A DNA stretch of 64,000 nucleotides from Escherichia phage PNJ-6: the sequence record OQ076693; one strand, written 5' to 3'. Below the pieces are notes generated by a model. The model did no database searches, was not told the origin of the DNA, and saw only the letters and a list, made by a program, of their open reading frames with translations. Positions 44,905 to 60,050 of this stretch are shown here, in pieces. The stretch's first letter is position 1. Each line of letters opens with the position of its first letter. The position numbers and the translations under genes were made by a program.

Positions 44905-45426
44905 TTAGTAACCTCGGTCTTGGCGAGCGAAGTTTTCAGCATTCTTCAAGTAATACAGTTTGAAGATTTCTTCAGCAGAAAGTCCTAGACCTTGGAACAT
45001 ATTTAGAACGAAATGCAGAATATCAATCATTTCAAATTTAATTTCAAGCTGGTCTTCAGGAGACAGTTCATCGATACGACGATTTCGATATTCAGCGTGT
45101 TGCGCCTTCCACGGTTTCCATACAGAGCTAGCGGCTTTTTCACCATTGCTCATACCACCAAGTGAAGTCAGAAGTTCACGGAATTCATCATCAATATAAT
45201 CTTTCTGATTACGCAACCAATCAACAACATCACCAGCAGTAGCCAATTCATCAGGATGTTTGTTATGTTCAGGCTTGTCATTTGCCAGACGAACCTGTAA
45301 AGATTTCTGCATATCAAGCATTACCTGCAGAGGGTCTTTATCTTCGTGAATCAAAGCATTAAAATAAGCTTCTTCTGCTTTATCAACACCAGAAATAAGT
45401 TGTGAACATTCGTTAAAGTGTGCCAT
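44905..45426 (-). CDS. 56: dCTP pyrophosphatase (dCTPase) gp56
   Basis: ORF 44905..45441 trimmed to MAHFNECSQL...; MazG-like core (DELATAGDVVDWLRNQKDYIDDEFRELL; EDQLEIKFEMIDILHFVLNMF). Confidence 0.82.
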   Translation of the reverse strand: MAHFNECSQLISGVDKAEEAYFNALIHEDKDPLQVMLDMQKSLQVRLANDKPEHNKHPDELATAGDVVDWLRNQKDYIDDEFRELLTSLGGMSNGEKAASSVWKPWKAQHAEYRNRRIDELSPEDQLEIKFEMIDILHFVLNMFQGLGLSAEEIFKLYYLKNAENFARQDRGY

Positions 45427-45514
45427 TATTTTTCCTTTCAATTCAGTATAAGAGAGTTAATTCTAACATTAATTTTATAAAGCGTAATAAATAATAGGTA
45501 ACTAAGGAGATATT

Positions 45515-51893: not shown

Positions 51894-52235
51894 TTAAAAG
51901 AATTTAAATTTTTTCTTGGTCCGTTCATTAAAAGCTTGTTGTACTTGCATTGTAACACATTTTTCAACATGTGGTGCAAGTTCTGCTTTTCTGTCCTGGT
52001 CAAGAACTGCAAAGTCCATTACGATTTTACCATCAACCCAGTCTAGTTTTGTAATATAGACTATATGATGAGAACCATCTTCAAGTGTAATCAGAATCTC
52101 TTGAATGACATTTTCCATTGCTGAACGGATAATTTTAAGAGATTCATTAAACACTCGTTCTTTGCGAATGTCTTCCCCTTCCGAAGAAGGGGATTCATCA
52201 ACGATTTCTAGATTTAAATCATCGAGATTATTCAT
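51894..52235 (-). CDS. small protein at the gene 40 position
   Basis: ORF 51894..52256 trimmed to internal ATG (MNNLDDLNLEIV...); between uvsX and 41 where T4 gene 40 lies; call by synteny and size only. Confidence 0.45.
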   Translation of the reverse strand: MNNLDDLNLEIVDESPSSEGEDIRKERVFNESLKIIRSAMENVIQEILITLEDGSHHIVYITKLDWVDGKIVMDFAVLDQDRKAELAPHVEKCVTMQVQQAFNERTKKKFKFF

Positions 52236-53400
52236 CGAAATCTTCCATTTCGTCAAGGTCGTTTTCTATATCTGCTGCAGACGGAGCATCAGAAGTTTTA
52301 ACCGGAACTTTAGTTGTTGCTTTGCAATTAATAAGGTCGTTAACAGCGTCATCAACTTCTTTAATAGAAGAGATAGCACCTAGTTTATATTTAGTTTCAA
52401 TTGCATCTCGGAAAGGTTTGTGTTTAAACAACGGTCCCCAGAATTCTACACAATCAGTAGCTTTAGCACGCCATGATTTTTCTTCACGAATCATTTCGCC
52501 TGTTTCTTCGTCAAGGAATTCTCGAGCATACCACCCGGCTTTAGGCTTAACTACAAAACCAATTTCAGTTGCCATTTCTAACAAGCCACTGAATGGGTCA
52601 ATACCACCATCGAAATTAACCGTGATTGGGAAAGTAGATTTTTCTTTAACGGTGCGAGATTTTTCTGCTTTCAACGTGAAGTCATAACCGGTCAATTCTG
52701 TACCTTCTTTAACCTGACGTTTAGAGATAAAGAATACAGTGTTAGCAGAGTAAAGAATACCTGTACCACCACCCATAATCTCTTTAGGATACAATCCGCC
52801 GATTTCCATTGCTGTATGGTTGATTGCAACACATGGAATATCTTTAATAGTCAGATAAGGAGTCACAATGCGGAACAGAGATTTAAGTGCCTTAGCACGA
52901 GACATATCACCTACAACTTTCTCGTTCAATGCATCTTCAGTTTCTTTCTTAGATGCAGTATTACCGATTGAATCGATAAAGATAATAACTTTATCACCGC
53001 GTTCAATCGCGTCAAGCTGATTAGTCATATCAACTTTAAGTTGTTCGACAGATTGAATCGGAGTATGAACTACACGGTCTAAATCAACACCCATTGAACG
53101 AAAATAAGATTCTGAAGCACCAAATTCCGAATCATAGAACAAACAAATTGCATCTTTATATTTCTTCATATATGCTGCAACCATGGTCAGTCCAAACAAC
53201 GTTTTAAAGTGTTTAGAAGGAGCAGCAAAAATAGTTAAGCCTGATTGCAACCCAGCATTCAGTGCACCACCTAATGCAATATTCAACATCGGAATACGAG
53301 TAGGGACTTCATCACGATTATTAAACAGCTTAGACTTAGTCAAGTCTGCAGTCATTTTAGAAGTAGAAGCTTTAATCAGACGAGATTTTAAATCAGACAT
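52228..53400 (-). CDS. uvsX: recombinase UvsX (RecA/Rad51 family)
   Basis: 390-aa ORF; Walker A-like P-loop (FAAPSKHFKT), RecA core, acidic C-terminus (DLDEMEDFDE). Confidence 0.9.
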   Translation of the reverse strand: MSDLKSRLIKASTSKMTADLTKSKLFNNRDEVPTRIPMLNIALGGALNAGLQSGLTIFAAPSKHFKTLFGLTMVAAYMKKYKDAICLFYDSEFGASESYFRSMGVDLDRVVHTPIQSVEQLKVDMTNQLDAIERGDKVIIFIDSIGNTASKKETEDALNEKVVGDMSRAKALKSLFRIVTPYLTIKDIPCVAINHTAMEIGGLYPKEIMGGGTGILYSANTVFFISKRQVKEGTELTGYDFTLKAEKSRTVKEKSTFPITVNFDGGIDPFSGLLEMATEIGFVVKPKAGWYAREFLDEETGEMIREEKSWRAKATDCVEFWGPLFKHKPFRDAIETKYKLGAISSIKEVDDAVNDLINCKATTKVPVKTSDAPSAADIENDLDEMEDFDE

Positions 53401-53499: not shown

Positions 53500-54048
53500 T
53501 TAACGAGCCCATTTGATAATTTCTGTAATCAAATTATTACGTTCGCTTGCATTAAATCCTATAACTTTGTTAGCACCATCATGATTAAGTAATTGATACG
53601 TTTGGATTTCGTTATGAATTGCAAACTCTTCAAAATACGAAATGACTGTATTAAACCTGAATGAAGACAAAGTAATAAGGTCGTCTTCAAAACTTTCAGT
53701 CATTTCGTTACGTGTTAAAATAATTGTGAACACATCATGGTTTTGGCAAAGACGAACATAATCCTGTTCATAAACGTCAAGAACCGAGTCCGCATCTTGT
53801 CGAATACGTCCATAAACCCAGTTACTAATATATCCACGGTCTAACAGATAAATCTTAGTAGGGTCTAAATAATTCAACATCGTTTCGAAACAGCCAACTT
53901 CATTTCGAGACTTAACATCGAAACGTCCATCAACTGTTCGTTTAGGGAAATCAATCTTTACATATCTTTCACTAATTTCCATTATGTCATTAATGAAAGT
54001 TGTTTTACCAGCATTATCCGGGCCATCTACTAAAATAATTTTAGCCAT
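53500..54048 (-). CDS. P-loop kinase-like protein
   Basis: 182-aa ORF with N-terminal Walker A (ILVDGPDNAGKTT), like small nucleoside/nucleotide kinases; occupies part of the T4 beta-gt interval between uvsX and 42. Confidence 0.5.
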   Translation of the reverse strand: MAKIILVDGPDNAGKTTFINDIMEISERYVKIDFPKRTVDGRFDVKSRNEVGCFETMLNYLDPTKIYLLDRGYISNWVYGRIRQDADSVLDVYEQDYVRLCQNHDVFTIILTRNEMTESFEDDLITLSSFRFNTVISYFEEFAIHNEIQTYQLLNHDGANKVIGFNASERNNLITEIIKWAR

Positions 54049-54049
54049 T

Positions 54050-54949
54050 TTATTCCTCGATTACGACATCTTCATATTTAGGTATATTATACGGCGAAGA
54101 AATTAAAGCATTAAAGTAGATGAACTCGCCAAGACCTGGATGGAATACTTCTTCAGGATTTTCGAAGTATTGAATCTTCGGACGTCCTTTAAGAATTTGA
54201 TAGTACTCAGTTTTAGTTGGTTTAAAAATTCGAATCAGCGCTTCTTCAGGATACTTATTTCTGTCGAAGCTATTATTTGGATCGGTTATATAAAGCGGTT
54301 GACCTAATTGAATTGCACATTCAACCACTTGTTCAAAACGATAGCACGGGTCACTAATTCGAAATGGATGAAAAATACCATCTAGATGAATAGGAGCCAA
54401 ATCACCTACAAGACGCTGCATGATGGAAGGACGTATAACTTTCTGCGTTACGATAATCTTATTACCATCTGCACCTGCGTTAACCAGCACTTCTTTTTGA
54501 CGTTCATTCAACACAGTAGTTTGAAGTGAACGATTAACAGACAACATGTCGGTTTTTAAGAATTCGTCAATATAAAAACGTGGTTTATTAGGGTCTGCAG
54601 TGATATTGAAATTGAATTCTACGTCAAAATTGCCGTCATATCCAGTGATATCTGTGATTAGAAAATCACAATCATAATAATCAATTAATGAATCAACCAC
54701 AAATTCATTTTCAGACCAGAAATATTTACGAGTGTTATATGCGTTATCTTTATACCATAATGGAACAAACTTAAATTCTGGGAAAAGACGTTCGCATTCT
54801 TTAATATCAGATGCATTACGTGGATATGTAATCACATCACCCGGATTAGCACGGTGCAAATGAAGTTGGAAGTTGCCATCCTTAAGGATAGCATACTGTC
54901 CAGTTTCATAAGACCGCATACTCAAGATAGGTACGCGGAAAATAGCCAT
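54050..54949 (-). CDS. hypothetical protein (in place of T4 beta-glucosyltransferase)
   Basis: 299-aa ORF immediately upstream of gene 42, overlap-coupled; no recognisable motif by eye. Confidence 0.5.
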   Translation of the reverse strand: MAIFRVPILSMRSYETGQYAILKDGNFQLHLHRANPGDVITYPRNASDIKECERLFPEFKFVPLWYKDNAYNTRKYFWSENEFVVDSLIDYYDCDFLITDITGYDGNFDVEFNFNITADPNKPRFYIDEFLKTDMLSVNRSLQTTVLNERQKEVLVNAGADGNKIIVTQKVIRPSIMQRLVGDLAPIHLDGIFHPFRISDPCYRFEQVVECAIQLGQPLYITDPNNSFDRNKYPEEALIRIFKPTKTEYYQILKGRPKIQYFENPEEVFHPGLGEFIYFNALISSPYNIPKYEDVVIEE

Positions 54950-55665
54950 TAGACAAGGAATCCTTTAACATAATCAAAATCACGTTCAAACACATGGGCA
55001 CTTACCATGGTATGAGTATAATCACCAACTTCTACACCACATTCGTTAGCGATATAATGAAGTAATTTTCCTTGGAGATAAAAATCCAACTGCATAACAA
55101 CAGCACAGTTCTGAGAACGCATATGACAGTGGGTATAAAGCTTACCATCACGAATATAATAAGTCACTGAGTCAGTACATGGATATTCAAGTGTTTCGTC
55201 TGAATCAAGCAAAGCCTGATCAGAACTTTCTAGAATTTGGAACACAACTCTTCGAGAGTTAGGTTTTTCTTTAAGTTCTTTTAGAAGAGTTGGTAACTGG
55301 GCCGCAATGCGAGGACCATAGAAAGTGTTGAAGTTTGCAGGCAAAGCGTCTGATTTAGGTTTAGAAATAAATTTAGCGACGTTAGGATATGCCTTAAATG
55401 CTTCTTTTGCATCAGTACCACCAGAAATCATAAATTTCCAGAAATCTTCAGCATATTCATAAGAGATGCGATTAATACGTGGGTCGGTCATTTTGAATGA
55501 TGAAGGGGTATCAACAACTACTGTCATAGACCCAATTTCATTACAACGTCCAATACGAGAATCAGTAACGAACTGTGGATTTTCTAAAATTTCACGATTG
55601 ACAGCTTTAAATGCGGATTGAAAATCTGCGGCTTTAATATATTTCATTGTGTTATGTTTTCCCAT
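54949..55665 (-). CDS. 42: dCMP hydroxymethylase (thymidylate synthase fold)
   Basis: 238-aa ORF with TS-fold catalytic-cysteine region (LEYPCTDSVTYYIRDGKLYTHCHMRSQN); synteny uvsX...42...43. Confidence 0.72.
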   Translation of the reverse strand: MGKHNTMKYIKAADFQSAFKAVNREILENPQFVTDSRIGRCNEIGSMTVVVDTPSSFKMTDPRINRISYEYAEDFWKFMISGGTDAKEAFKAYPNVAKFISKPKSDALPANFNTFYGPRIAAQLPTLLKELKEKPNSRRVVFQILESSDQALLDSDETLEYPCTDSVTYYIRDGKLYTHCHMRSQNCAVVMQLDFYLQGKLLHYIANECGVEVGDYTHTMVSAHVFERDFDYVKGFLV

Positions 55666-55683
55666 GTTTACCTCAATACAGTT

Positions 55684-55708
55684 ATTATATACTCAATTCA
55701 TAAAGCTT
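55684..55708 (-). promoter_or_regulatory. possible MotA-dependent middle promoter for gene 42
   Basis: Minus-strand AAGCTTTA (near match to the MotA box) 11 bp upstream of TATAAT (rc of 55684-55689); about 20 nt upstream of the gene 42 ATG. Confidence 0.3.
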
Positions 55709-55785
55709 ATTTGAATTTCTTAGCGATGTTGATATAACGTAAAGCTTCAGCATCGATATTTCCAAGAACACTATGAAGAAATGCA

Positions 55786-55947
55786 TCAGCGTAGTATTCT
55801 AGTTGAACAGGTTTCTTTAATCACTTTAGCCGCTTTAGTTTCAAACAGGCCCATAAGGGCCTTTTTAAGAATTTGTTCGTTGCTGTTAATTTTAATAGTC
55901 AAAATCTCTTCGTTAAGTTGGTGGTTAAAAGTTTTTCTAGAAATCAT
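55786..55947 (-). CDS. small ORF (53 aa) coupled to the upstream cassette gene
   Basis: Below ORF-track cutoff; ATG overlaps the stop of ORF 55944..57104 (ATGA); contains a GGCCC-TTAT-GGGCC hairpin, so it could instead be a terminator region. Confidence 0.25.
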   Translation of the reverse strand: MISRKTFNHQLNEEILTIKINSNEQILKKALMGLFETKAAKVIKETCSTRILR

Positions 55948-57104
55948 TCTGGGTACCTCAAAGCGTCATCAGAGTTAGTTATATCAATAATAGATATAGA
56001 GTTTTCTGATAACCCATTTTTAGATAACTGACGTTTATAATATCTTTCACAATATGTACACGTCGTCCCGCAGATTTCATTAGCACAATCGAAATCTGGA
56101 TGTTTGAACCACCTTTTTTCTAAAAAGCCATCTAACAAAGAGGTTTCAATATTTACCGTATGTGAAAACTCAGTCTCATTTTCAAGAGTGAAAATGGTCT
56201 CTAAAGGCTTCCACAATTCCAACAAATTACCTTCAAACTTTTCAGAAGCGTAAGCTTCAAGAACTTTCAAAATGTAGTCGGTGCTACCTGTACGTCCTGA
56301 AACTTTAAATTGAGTGATACCAATATCATTATAAAGTTTCAAATCTTGGGGACGAACAAAACGAGTTCTCAACCAGTTAAATGGGTCTGTATCACGAGCT
56401 TTAATACAGTGCTGCATAGGATATCCATTTAAGGATTTAGCATCATCAGCTGTAACATCAGTACTATGGAAAATATAGCAAGAGTCACGATAGCTACAAT
56501 GTGTTGTATACCCTTTACCAGCATTAGAACAGAACTCATTTACAAGAACTTCAAATATTATATTGTTCTTATTACAAAACTCTGCTGCACGCTTCAGGAA
56601 AGAAACTGAACGGTTCTTATGAATTCCACAGCAGACCTTTTTGATATTATATTGGTCATGCAAGTATTTGATTTGAGTTACAGCATCGACATGTAGAATT
56701 GTTGAAACTTCAATCTCAATGTCTTTATTGACTTCACGAACAATTTCCATAACAACAGGGTTAGCGATAGTAATACGCCATACGCCTATTGACCAAAGAT
56801 ACTGAACATAATCCTGAATAGCTTTCTTCTTCCACTCAACTAGTTCTCTTTTTGAACCAGGATTTATCGTGTTGAGTGTATAGTTAAAGCAAATACCTAA
56901 TTCGTTACAACGTTTAACGTAATCTTCTAACATCTTTTTGTCAACGTCAGGAAGCCTAAAATCAGGTCTGGCTGCTACAAAAGCCATTTCTCTTGTAGAG
57001 CCGTATACTTCGTTTATCAAGCTATTAGGATAAGTTTTATTGAGCTCTACGATTTTATCAAGAAGAGCTAAATCAAAATTCGTTCCGATTTTAAAAGTAT
57101 TCAT
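55944..57104 (-). CDS. Cys-rich protein, distant peptidase-U32-like resemblance; function unknown
   Basis: 386-aa ORF; segment FEVLVNEFCSNAGKGYTTHCSYRDSC resembles the U32 signature; C-terminal cysteine cluster CANEICGTTCTYCERYY; first gene downstream of the sugar cassette. Confidence 0.35.
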   Translation of the reverse strand: MNTFKIGTNFDLALLDKIVELNKTYPNSLINEVYGSTREMAFVAARPDFRLPDVDKKMLEDYVKRCNELGICFNYTLNTINPGSKRELVEWKKKAIQDYVQYLWSIGVWRITIANPVVMEIVREVNKDIEIEVSTILHVDAVTQIKYLHDQYNIKKVCCGIHKNRSVSFLKRAAEFCNKNNIIFEVLVNEFCSNAGKGYTTHCSYRDSCYIFHSTDVTADDAKSLNGYPMQHCIKARDTDPFNWLRTRFVRPQDLKLYNDIGITQFKVSGRTGSTDYILKVLEAYASEKFEGNLLELWKPLETIFTLENETEFSHTVNIETSLLDGFLEKRWFKHPDFDCANEICGTTCTYCERYYKRQLSKNGLSENSISIIDITNSDDALRYPE

Positions 57105-57161: not shown

Positions 57162-57563
57162 TTATAGATTCGGTTTATATGATTTAAATGTTTCGAATTC
57201 GCCTTTATTCATAAGAGCTTTGAATTCGTCAGGACGCATAGCTTTATCGTCGATAATCCAATCATATACTGGTTTATGTGTTAGCAAATTATGGTACTTC
57301 AAGCCAATGTTTGCCAAGTTCTGAATCAGACTTGGGAGAATGTCAATTGCTATACGACCAGGACCGACTGACTTCATACCGCGAGCAGTGTAAAGCGTTA
57401 TGGTATGCCCTGCATCATACAGGGCATTAATGGCAGACACCATTTCGACGTCTGGTTTGAAGTTCACGTAATCACGATTGTTATTCCACTCTGTTATACA
57501 ATCATCGACATCAAAACAAAGATTAAGCATGTTTTCTACACGGTGCATTAGATTCGTTCCCAT
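57162..57563 (-). CDS. HAD-superfamily phosphatase (minimal)
   Basis: 133-aa ORF with HAD motif I DxDxT (LCFDVDDCITEW), motif II-like TARG, motif IV-like acidic pair (YDWIIDDKA). Confidence 0.6.
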   Translation of the reverse strand: MGTNLMHRVENMLNLCFDVDDCITEWNNNRDYVNFKPDVEMVSAINALYDAGHTITLYTARGMKSVGPGRIAIDILPSLIQNLANIGLKYHNLLTHKPVYDWIIDDKAMRPDEFKALMNKGEFETFKSYKPNL

Positions 57564-59233
57564 TGATGAGTGATATCGCCACCGATTGGACGATAAGAAA
57601 CACCAGTTTCTTTATCAGTTAGTACCCATTTACCAGGATTTTTTGTAATCAGAGTAGCCGTTACAGGTTCTGCTACGTCATAACTAATAGAGCCGTCCTG
57701 AAGTACACGGCCCATGTTACGTAATTGCTTAGTCAGAAGTTCCATACCTTTATAATATGCGGCTACCGCTTTAAGTGGATTATTCTTGAAATAACCACCT
57801 AATGCAATCCAGATAATTGCCACTGCCAAATGATGATACTCGTTAAACGAACTCATCTTTCCATATTTGTAAACTAATGGATTGATGTTAATAGTCACAT
57901 TACAAGTTGTTTCATCAATAGTAAACTGGCCCCAGGTCGGATTAGCGTTGAATTCATCATAACCTGAAACAGCATAAAGCACTTTAGCTTCATCGTACAA
58001 TTTTGGCCCGTAAATCTTGGTTTCGCCAAAATATCCACGAGGGTCGATAAACTTGACTTCACCGTTATCAGTAATCATAGTATTACTGAAGTTCGGGTCG
58101 CCATGAATAACAGAGTACTGTCCCTGAGAACGGTTATGATAACGAATAAGATGTTCTAAAGCTTGTTTCAGCATTGGCTTCAGACGCCCAATCTTAGTGT
58201 AGTTCACATGTGTGATTTTACCAAATGAATCAATCAATGGTTGAATACTTTCACAACGATCAATAACTTTCGTATAGAATTCTTTAGTGAAATCACGGCG
58301 AACAGTTTCAGGACTTACAAAATAAGTGTCTGTGCTGAATTTCAGTGCATCTAAAATTGCATCAACAATTTGTGGACGAGCAAGACTCGATTTGGATTTA
58401 ATATATTCAAATGCCGGCTTACCTTTAATGCGTTCCATTTCAAAGTTATTTTCATTAACAGAAACTAACTGAGGAACTGAATCTGATTTCACTTTAAGAT
58501 ACCATGAAATCTCATCTTTCTGAAGAGCTCGACCCTGTTCGGTTAATGCGAATTTAGTTACAGTTTCTTCACCAATTTCAACTGCATTAAAACTACGATT
58601 AAGTTCACGAACTTCATGAGCTTTTTCAAGTTTAGGCATATCACCTAAATCAATTAGATTCATAAGCTCTGATTTATTGAATGCACTGCCGTAAAGAAAT
58701 TCTACGAAATCACGTCCTTTGCAGTATTCATGAATTTCCTCATCAGTAGAGCCCATATAGAATTCCCAGTCTTTGAACTGATAAATTCCTACAACATTAC
58801 CACCTGTTGAACCTACGTTAGTGATATTTTCACCGTCGAAATTATATCGGCATTCGTCACCCTTAACATAGATTGCGTTAACATTCCAAGACCATGAACC
58901 GAAATCAGGAATAATATCACACCAGTTAACAATTACATTATGGCCGTCTAAATCTTTGTGTAATTTAGCAAGAGCATAAGCAGAACCATACGCTTCATCA
59001 ACTGTACGAATAGTCACATTGAACCCTTCTTGCTCACAATAAGCTCGAACAGTTTCAGCAAATTTTGAATGAACTACTACAATAATTTCATCTGCGCCAA
59101 GGTCAGAATAAATTGTATACAAATTGCTCAGAATAGTGTCTTGTTTATAGTTAACAAGCACCTTAGGAATATGATGCGTTATTGGATACAAACGAGTTGC
59201 CAGTCCAGCACCAAGAATAACAGCTTTTTTCAT
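57548..59233 (-). CDS. bifunctional sugar kinase / sugar-1-phosphate nucleotidyltransferase
   Basis: 561-aa ORF; N-terminal NTP-transferase signature (MKKAVILGAGLATRLYPIT...PKVLV); C-terminal APH/choline-kinase-type motif (VIHGDPNFSNTMITDNGEVKFIDPRG); overlaps the HAD gene by 16 nt. Confidence 0.7.
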   Translation of the reverse strand: MKKAVILGAGLATRLYPITHHIPKVLVNYKQDTILSNLYTIYSDLGADEIIVVVHSKFAETVRAYCEQEGFNVTIRTVDEAYGSAYALAKLHKDLDGHNVIVNWCDIIPDFGSWSWNVNAIYVKGDECRYNFDGENITNVGSTGGNVVGIYQFKDWEFYMGSTDEEIHEYCKGRDFVEFLYGSAFNKSELMNLIDLGDMPKLEKAHEVRELNRSFNAVEIGEETVTKFALTEQGRALQKDEISWYLKVKSDSVPQLVSVNENNFEMERIKGKPAFEYIKSKSSLARPQIVDAILDALKFSTDTYFVSPETVRRDFTKEFYTKVIDRCESIQPLIDSFGKITHVNYTKIGRLKPMLKQALEHLIRYHNRSQGQYSVIHGDPNFSNTMITDNGEVKFIDPRGYFGETKIYGPKLYDEAKVLYAVSGYDEFNANPTWGQFTIDETTCNVTININPLVYKYGKMSSFNEYHHLAVAIIWIALGGYFKNNPLKAVAAYYKGMELLTKQLRNMGRVLQDGSISYDVAEPVTATLITKNPGKWVLTDKETGVSYRPIGGDITHQWERI

Positions 59234-59414: not shown

Positions 59415-60050
59415 TCATTGTTCGCCTCGTAACATGGCACCTAGTGCACCGCCAGGGTGGAACTTAAGGAAGTCATTAGAGGTAAATCCACGTTCAGACG
59501 AAAGGTTGATAGCAAACGTATCGATAAGCGCTAACAACAATGTAGTGGACATGGTCGGAGCCAGAGAATTCTCATCAACCTCTACTGCGATGCCTGTACA
59601 GAAAGAGTAATCAAAAAGGGCTTCATTTTCTTGTGGAATGTCTGGGTTACAATGCAACAGAATCTGTTTGACGTTCGGACGAATCATTTTAAGATGCTTA
59701 GCCACACCTATCATTTCTTCAGTTTTACCAGAACGACTAATATGAATCAACACATCATTAGGCGCAATGAATCCTGCATCACCGTGAGAATAATGCCCTG
59801 TGTTCAAGTACATACTCGGGATACCGAGTGAAGCAAATGTCTCAGAAGCTTTAGTTGCAATATTAGCATTCTTACCAACACCTGTAATAATTACTCGGCT
59901 TTCATAATTACTAAGTCCCGGGCGTCGAAGAGTTTCTAGAATAGCATTATAACGAGCAGGGTTTTGACTAATTACTTTGGCCATAGCGGCCAAAGAAGAA
60001 GCTTGTTTTATGATTGCGTCAATAGCGATAGTAATAGGAGTAGTTTTCAT
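59415..60050 (-). CDS. SIS-domain sugar-phosphate isomerase (arabinose-5-phosphate isomerase-like)
   Basis: 211-aa ORF with KdsD/GutQ-type SIS motifs (ITGVGKNANIATK; HISRSGKTEE; LAPTMSTT; HPGGALG); no CBS domains. Confidence 0.75.
   Translation of the reverse strand: MKTTPITIAIDAIIKQASSLAAMAKVISQNPARYNAILETLRRPGLSNYESRVIITGVGKNANIATKASETFASLGIPSMYLNTGHYSHGDAGFIAPNDVLIHISRSGKTEEMIGVAKHLKMIRPNVKQILLHCNPDIPQENEALFDYSFCTGIAVEVDENSLAPTMSTTLLLALIDTFAINLSSERGFTSNDFLKFHPGGALGAMLRGEQ

Follow-up and report, generated by a model that had tools for sequence, protein, structure and literature searches.

Two adjacent minus-strand genes of Escherichia phage PNJ-6 (sequence record OQ076693), at 53500..54949 of the 64,000-nucleotide stretch analysed here (the window), appear from sequence and orthology to lie at the downstream end of the operon with which this RB69-like phage would make arabinosyl-5-hydroxycytosine, a hypermodified base. 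They are open reading frames (ORFs) for proteins of 182 and 299 amino acids (aa), a nucleotide-kinase-like and a putative glycosyltransferase gene, respectively, and occupy the places given in a first-pass annotation of this DNA. Its suggestion that both act in a DNA modification pathway is borne out by their location in the same cluster and by their orthology to pathway genes of phages RB69 and DLP3. The locus is not unexplored: papers of 2025-2026 already give predictions for both genes, and these functions and the place of the genes in the pathway are already known (PMC13326640; PMC13390438; PMC12838424). A transposon-mutagenesis preprint on phage Bas46 gives no per-gene essentiality for either of them.

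In the pathway that we consider on balance probable, a modified deoxycytidine monophosphate (dCMP) would be made, phosphorylated by the 182-aa kinase and glycosylated in DNA by the 299-aa transferase. As we infer it, the sequence of steps, with the substrates of the two enzymes, would be as follows. The thymidylate-synthase homologue encoded upstream of the pair makes 5-hydroxy-dCMP. The 182-aa protein, acting as a pathway-dedicated deoxynucleoside monophosphate (dNMP) kinase, would phosphorylate the modified dCMP to the diphosphate; in the simplest case its substrate would be 5-hydroxy-dCMP itself. Host nucleoside diphosphate kinase and phage polymerase would then place the modified nucleotide in DNA. 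The 299-aa transferase would attach the first arabinofuranose, donated by uridine diphosphate (UDP)-arabinofuranose (UDP-Araf), to the cytosine 5-hydroxyl and would most likely do so post-replicatively, like the alpha- and beta-glucosyltransferases of T4, and a second arabinose would be added by a GT4-type transferase encoded elsewhere in the genome (RB69 ORF003c type).

Organization and conservation of the locus

The synthase, transferase and kinase genes of this pathway are:

54949..55665, minus strand: 238-aa thymidylate-synthase homologue (Pfam Thymidylat_synt, E = 2e-15), 5-hydroxy-dCMP synthase, not dCMP hydroxymethylase gp42
54050..54949, minus strand: 299-aa ORF, predicted compact GT-B glycosyltransferase and first (alpha) arabinofuranosyltransferase on 5-hydroxycytosine; ortholog of RB69p047+046, DLP3 gp79 and Thanatos TH1_063
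53500..54048, minus strand: 182-aa kinase-type ORF, thymidylate-kinase-fold nucleotide kinase; ortholog of RB69p045 and DLP3 gp78

The kinase ORF, whose product begins with MAKIILVDGPDNAGKTT, has uvsX (52228..53400) as its other neighbour. As read from the sequence, the stop codon of the ThyA homologue and the start codon of the 299-aa gene have one base in common (TAATG), and the stop codon of the 299-aa gene is separated by one base from the ATG of the kinase gene (GAGGAA-TAA-A-ATG), with the Shine-Dalgarno sequence of the latter lying inside the 3' end of the former. On the minus strand from 55665 to 53500 a terminator scan found no terminator-like site; this absence is the sole use made of our promoter and terminator scans, as their counts did not exceed those in shuffled sequence. 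This arrangement argues for synthase, transferase and kinase being a co-expressed, translationally coupled unit. Upstream of the unit, a 278-nt gap on the minus strand (55666..55943) separates the synthase from a gene for a U32-family protein. This gap may contain the promoter of the unit; it also holds a 53-aa ORF (55786..55947), and the small ORF annotated at this place comprises 40 aa in HY126 and 79 aa in RB69 (RB69p049).

Escherichia phage F2, a Mosigvirus of the RB69 type, matches the region at 100% identity, and about 150 further phage genomes do so at 95% or more. Gene order is common to the window, RB69 and HY126, and the three genes together are 97.5% identical to those of RB69. Between the window and HY126, 11 synonymous and 3 non-synonymous codon differences are found in the 299-aa gene, and 2 and 1, respectively, in the kinase gene. 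Homologues of the 299-aa protein occur in 348 phage records. With this identity, this number of records and these mostly synonymous changes, the gene pair goes far beyond a chance occurrence of ORFs. In RB69 the kinase (RB69p045) shares 179/182 residues with the window protein, whereas the transferase is cut into RB69p047 and RB69p046 (177/181 and 116/116 residues identical) by one extra base in the RB69 reference record (L064 2598-3498 in our numbering); in F2 the gene is whole. This comparison confirms the sequencing error in the RB69 transferase gene that was already remarked on by Lee et al. (PMC13326640). The DLP3 and Thanatos proteins are more distant (46% identity to DLP3 gp79 and 48% to the Thanatos protein).

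The neighbouring synthase

The 299-aa gene had been described in the first-pass annotation as overlap-coupled to gene 42, i.e. to a gene for 5-hydroxymethylcytosine (hmC) synthesis. The overlap is there, but the neighbour is a different enzyme. In an alignment with E. coli ThyA and T4 gp42, the 238-aa protein shows the exchanges D169N and N177D (ThyA numbering); it is only 25% identical to T4 gp42, and essentially identical to the HY126 'thymidylate synthase' of solved structure (PDB 9iqc/9ir2/9iqu; E = 2.7e-162). According to Lee et al. (NAR 2026, PMC13326640), N169/D177 marks the 5-hydroxy-dCMP synthases that depend on flavin and O2, and this activity was demonstrated for RB69 gp48, the ortholog of the 238-aa protein (PMC13326640). 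It was shown for the HY126 ortholog as well. By residue signature and orthology the neighbour is a 5-hydroxy-dCMP synthase and not gene 42. When arabinose was first found in RB69 in 2018, hmC was assumed to be the base (PMC6024577), but RB69 DNA has since turned out to contain beta-D-Araf-(1-3)-alpha-D-Araf-O-5-deoxycytidine rather than arabinosyl-hmC (PMC13326640).

The 299-aa protein: a predicted GT-B glycosyltransferase

Sequence searches with the 299-aa protein stayed inside its own family. It has no Pfam or NCBIfam match, neither phmmer nor a 40-sequence profile found a glycosyltransferase in the PDB, and PHROGs lists it in family 3891, of unknown function. Remote homology search and structure prediction had been proposed in the first-pass annotation, and it is entirely to the latter that the protein owes its fold assignment. 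A confident AlphaFold2 model calculated with 40 homologues (predicted local distance difference test score, pLDDT, 94.6; predicted template modelling score, pTM, 0.89) shows two Rossmann-like alpha/beta domains that face each other across a cleft, which is the GT-B fold, with GT4-type enzymes, such as sucrose-phosphate synthase, BshA and PimA, as the best structural matches. A Foldseek search against viral models agrees with this assignment and also retrieved both RB69 half-ORFs. As modelled, the protein would be a compact GT-B glycosyltransferase; of the earlier suggestion of a second transferase with a novel fold, the transferase is upheld and the novelty of the fold is not.

Conservation patterns can be mapped onto both domains. 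Residues S10-M-R-S13, Y19 and K23-D-G-N26 in the loop after the first strand are invariant, as are T99-D-I-T-G-Y104, N113-F-N-I116, R124, Y126 and D128 in the N-terminal domain and F193, P195-F-R197, D200, T222, P224-N225, K246 and H270-P271-G272 in the C-terminal domain, where position 275 is E or D in 40/40 homologues. Of an EX7E-type motif, which together with Arg/Lys for the phosphates would mark a C-terminal nucleotide-binding site, the first glutamate (E267) is not conserved, being K in 20/40 homologues.

In T4 the equivalent interval reads uvsX - segA - beta-gt - 42, so that the first-pass annotation had correctly placed beta-gt there. Homology of the 299-aa protein to T4 beta-gt was considered and rejected (BLASTP E = 3.8). 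In comparison with both the beta- and the alpha-glucosyltransferase of T4, it shows no sequence similarity, is about 50-100 residues shorter and is acidic rather than basic; its predicted donor and acceptor are UDP-arabinofuranose and 5-hydroxycytosine, whereas the T4 enzymes use UDP-glucose and 5-hydroxymethylcytosine. RB69 gp46:47 and DLP3 gp79 have been predicted to be arabinosyltransferase 1 (Lee et al. 2026, PMC13326640), with the argument that Thanatos, a phage with mono-arabinosylated DNA, encodes this type of transferase only (PMC13326640). From these two proteins and from Thanatos TH1_063, likewise called 'arabinosyltransferase 1' (PMC13326640, PMC12838424), the window protein does not differ in substance. 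The equivalent of TH1_063 in Thanatos-2 is TH2_066 (L002 5995-6897).

The 182-aa protein: a small and apparently dedicated kinase family

The 182-aa protein belongs to phrog_761 'thymidylate kinase' (E = 4e-45), and the P-loop, a DR(Y/H)-x2-S-x3-(Y/F) motif and the nucleoside monophosphate kinase fold are all present, in agreement with its first description as a nucleotide-kinase-like P-loop protein. With the thymidylate kinases (PF02223/TIGR00041; vaccinia 2v54, human TMPK) it shares the fold, the P-loop (E/D)GxDxxGK(S/T)T, FP(x)R and the identical spacing of the DR-x3-S-x3-(Y/F) motif, with D70-R71-x3-S75-x3-Y79 being invariant and spaced exactly as in these enzymes. Unlike them, however, it lies under every family cut-off (no Pfam match to PF02223 at E <= 1; 15.6 bits with TIGR00041, for which the cut-off is 83.25), is shorter and is confined to 5-hydroxycytosine modification clusters. 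Among 21 homologues as well as far more distant relatives, the P-loop GxDNxGKT, FPK(R), R113 and F-x-D122-D123-x-I are invariant; the last of these, together with an FN block, is not known from thymidylate kinases. Out of 1.84 billion representatives searched, 45 clusters reach E <= 1e-10, a small family dedicated to 5-hydroxycytosine modification clusters.

Two other kinase families were considered. A relation to T4 gp1 was rejected (BLASTP E = 0.23, covering 22 P-loop residues only), and there is no T4 gp1 homologue within the window; T4 gp1 and its RB69 counterpart gp159 plausibly do the same job as the 182-aa kinase, i.e. phosphorylate modified dCMP, while belonging to a different family. 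Membership in the 5-hydroxymethyldeoxyuridine (5-hmdU) DNA kinases (PF18748) was also rejected, or would be very distant: the 182-aa kinase has no match to this family, against 65 bits for M6 gp54, and its comparison with the latter gave an hhalign probability of 81% over 82 columns on the P-loop side only and a BLASTP E = 1.5. A role as a pentose kinase, raised earlier, is unlikely in view of the thymidylate-kinase nucleotide-binding motifs and of a sugar-kinase step having been reported for a 561-aa enzyme of the AfhE type. RB69 gp45, DLP3 gp78 and RL38J1 gp214, each called 'nucleotide kinase' in the same clusters, show no difference from the window kinase, and in the literature examined none of this type has been assigned a substrate.

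Linkage of kinase, transferase and synthase

For comparison we used 58 viral-contig loci with transferase relatives, annotated phage regions and two long metagenomic contigs. The kinase lies within 6 kb in 47/47 judgeable loci with a transferase homologue at E < 1e-38, usually directly downstream of the transferase and with overlapping gene ends. In fourteen metagenomic loci (L031-L044) and in L066, the cassette consists of synthase, transferase and kinase only, with a gene for a flavodoxin-like NAD(P)H oxidoreductase upstream of it in L036 and L066 as well. Since no arabinose-precursor genes are found within 6-8 kb of these cassettes, the kinase seems to be tied to the modified base and the first transferase and not to sugar synthesis, which also speaks against a pentose-kinase role. 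On the simplest reading, which we consider somewhat probable, synthase, transferase and kinase are a portable cassette that functionally corresponds to T4 genes 42, beta-gt and 1.

In JS98/JS10-like, Klebsiella Marfa-like and Proteus phages (L006-L008, L012-L016, L021, L026, L027) the kinase is more diverged (E ~1e-31 to 1e-36) and located upstream of the U32 gene or the synthase, still inside the cluster, i.e. it is linked but not always adjacent. Even next to transferase relatives of about 25% identity (L051, L053, L056) there is a kinase-like ORF, here immediately upstream of the transferase, although the matches are weak (E = 7e-8 for L053, E = 2e-3 to 3e-3 for L051 and L056).

Does glycosylation follow or precede replication?

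Our confidence in a pathway with post-replication transfer is held only slightly above the midpoint by three circumstances, namely that a gp1-type kinase suffices for 5-hydroxy-dCMP, that single transferases were inactive on DNA and that fusions of the kinase to a glycosylase domain exist. Together with several other points, all of them taken up in this and the following section, these weigh against the pathway. In the literature examined, we found no demonstrated activity for either protein. DLP3 transferases, purified singly and supplied with UDP-Araf or UDP-arabinopyranose (UDP-Arap), did not arabinosylate 5-hydroxycytosine DNA, and Lee et al. say that they are unable to decide between the mononucleotide and DNA as the acceptor of the first sugar (PMC13326640). 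TH1_063 did not transfer to DNA, dCMP or dCTP, with only unhydroxylated acceptors having been tried (PMC12838424). Moreover, RB69 gp159, a dNMP kinase of the T4 gp1 type, already phosphorylates 5-hydroxy-dCMP to the diphosphate in vitro and is sufficient for its incorporation in E. coli (PMC13326640), so that a second kinase looks redundant in T4-like phages and yet is strictly retained.

A different order of events would accommodate much of this. If the transferase acted on 5-hydroxy-dCMP before replication, the 182-aa kinase could take the bulky arabinosyl-5-hydroxy-dCMP that a gp1-type enzyme cannot handle; the polymerase would then use a triphosphate that already bears the sugar, with only the second arabinose being added on DNA. 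Although rather unlikely in our view, this order fits the failure to observe transfer to 5-hydroxycytosine DNA and the level of the first step having been left open by the authors, and the retention of a transferase-coupled second kinase, where a gp1-type kinase already covers 5-hydroxy-dCMP, suggests a non-redundant job. The best structural matches of the transferase use small, often phosphorylated acceptors, but GT4 structures in the PDB are mostly those of small-molecule enzymes, which biases the list. The transferase is also acidic, with a median isoelectric point (pI) of 5.1 for the family versus 9.05 for T4 beta-gt; this is weak evidence, and as a proxy for DNA binding the pI was discarded as uninformative, because DLP3 gp77 (pI 5.7), one of two enzymes jointly needed to arabinosylate DNA, is acidic too. 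The negative in-vitro result, for its part, was given as 'data not shown' and may be technical. All characterized phage DNA glycosyltransferases work after replication, later arabinoses do go onto DNA, and phages without a gp1-type kinase need the cassette kinase for plain 5-hydroxy-dCMP anyway.

Does the kinase act on free nucleotides?

In about eight metagenomic proteins of 314-357 aa, a domain of this kinase family is followed at the C-terminus by a glycosylase domain of the MBD4-type HhH-GPD class (Pfam PF00730; E = 2e-10 to MBD4 structures; conserved motifs G-x-GKY-x-DS and P-x-DKEL):

Kinase-glycosylase fusions: P0179, P0180, P0185, P0187, P0189, P0194, P0196, P0235; L068 8001-9074

One of them (L068) is encoded in a cluster with a D169N-type synthase, a flavin mononucleotide (FMN) reductase and arabinose-5-phosphate-isomerase-like and AfhE-like genes; no transferase homologue stands beside it in the 12.8 kb available. 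As HhH-GPD is a base-flipping fold and this fusion belongs to a 5-hydroxycytosine/arabinose-type cluster, the 182-aa protein might act at the DNA, as a base-directed kinase or as a non-catalytic partner in a DNA-bound complex with the transferase, instead of on free nucleotides. A precedent exists in the P-loop 5-hmdU DNA kinases, which are paired with a glycosylase-like transferase in thymidine hypermodification (PMC8989533). Nevertheless, we consider such a role improbable: the window kinase retains the full dNMP-binding motif set of thymidylate kinases and stands outside the 5-hmdU DNA kinase family, a phosphate on a phenol-like 5-hydroxyl would have no evident use for glycosylation, and the fusion may merely mean a shared pathway, e.g. 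a glycosylase domain that might repair deaminated 5-hydroxycytosine. The fusion could serve the repair of such lesions (5-hydroxyuracil:G) or connect the kinase to DNA. That the kinase has some transferase-tied job of its own, either in phosphorylating arabinosylated dCMP or in acting on or at DNA with a base-flipping partner, is a possibility that we entertain tentatively.

Finally, TH1_063 has been reported to combine xylose-1-phosphate and UTP into UDP-xylose (PMC12838424), an activity that is unexpected for a GT-B protein and conflicts with the 561-aa enzyme being the pyrophosphorylase. It could be taken to mean that the 299-aa protein is a UDP-pentose pyrophosphorylase instead of a transferase and that the 182-aa protein is an ordinary dTMP kinase, in keeping with the name 'thymidylate kinase' in many GenBank records and in PHROGs. 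This explanation is highly improbable, as the kinase scores far under the dTMP-kinase family cut-offs and occurs only beside this transferase and synthase, GT-B is not a nucleotidyltransferase fold, and the pyrophosphorylase step is reported, in a citation in PMC13326640, as experimentally assigned to the 561-aa enzyme of HY126. We therefore retain the order in which 5-hydroxy-dCMP would be phosphorylated by the 182-aa kinase, incorporated and then arabinosylated in DNA.

Other genes of the modification cluster

Further upstream, the cluster contains genes with predicted roles in precursor synthesis and a U32-family gene:

55944..57104, minus strand: 386-aa peptidase-U32-family protein, RB69p050 ortholog (Pfam Peptidase_U32, E = 7e-11; phrog_5757; weak UbiU match)
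57162..57563, minus strand: 133-aa HAD-type phosphatase, RB69 gp51 / HY126 AfhF type (phrog_1238, E = 5e-43)
57548..59233, minus strand: 561-aa bifunctional sugar-1-phosphate nucleotidyltransferase and sugar kinase, RB69 gp52:53 / HY126 AfhE type (Pfam NTP_transferase, E = 8.5e-10; weak APH-type kinase-family matches; phrog_4098)
59415..60050, minus strand: 211-aa SIS-domain arabinose-5-phosphate isomerase, RB69 gp55 type (Pfam SIS, E = 1e-10; HY126 ortholog annotated D-arabinose-5-phosphate isomerase)

No sequence match to the 386-aa U32 protein was found among solved structures. U32 proteins include the O2-independent hydroxylases UbiU/V, RlhA, which generates 5-hydroxycytidine (ho5C) in 23S rRNA, and TrhP, which generates 5-hydroxyuridine (ho5U) in tRNA. 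In L051, L053 and L056 the gene order is dUTPase_2-like - glycosyltransferase - kinase - glycosyltransferase - U32 - Pol III alpha, and a ThyA homologue is absent from the surrounding 6 kb. Both points suggest that the phage U32 protein could hydroxylate C5 anaerobically, as a reserve or substitute for the O2-dependent synthase. The RB69 protein of this type, gp50, is labelled a 'sugar or heterocycle reductase' by Lee et al. (PMC13326640). For the HAD phosphatase of the RB69 gp51/AfhF type, a role is given in PMC13326640 with reference to He et al. 2026. The AfhE-type 561-aa enzyme produces UDP-arabinofuranose, with its sugar-kinase and pyrophosphorylase steps reported for the HY126 enzyme, as cited in PMC13326640.

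Other genes may serve the synthase. Flavodoxin-like/FMN-reductase genes adjoin the synthase homologue in L036 (4790-5293), L066 (6739-7293), L065 (1-523) and L068 (9068-9613); these metagenomic genes are likely to supply reduced flavin to the flavin-dependent hydroxylase. Among the examined cluster ORFs of the window, no flavin-reductase-type gene turned up. About 8 kb from the cluster, the window ORF 44905..45441 (minus strand) corresponds, by position alone, to an HY126 gene annotated as dCTP pyrophosphatase, whose product matches Pfam dUTPase_2. If the window protein has this annotated activity, it would feed dCMP to the synthase.

Implications

Arabinosyl-5-hydroxycytosine is a recently defined hypermodification of phage DNA. 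It acts as a block to restriction enzymes, to the glycosylase Brig1 and to CRISPR systems that target DNA, and hundreds of T4-like phages carry it, some of them candidates for phage therapy. With functions already predicted for both genes, interest now focuses on what the kinase phosphorylates, on whether the nucleotide or DNA receives the first arabinose and on the kinase-glycosylase fusions. Should the first sugar be attached to the nucleotide, this would overturn the T4 paradigm of post-replication glycosylation and be new for phage DNA glycosylation; it would also offer a route to the enzymatic synthesis of glycosylated deoxynucleoside triphosphates.

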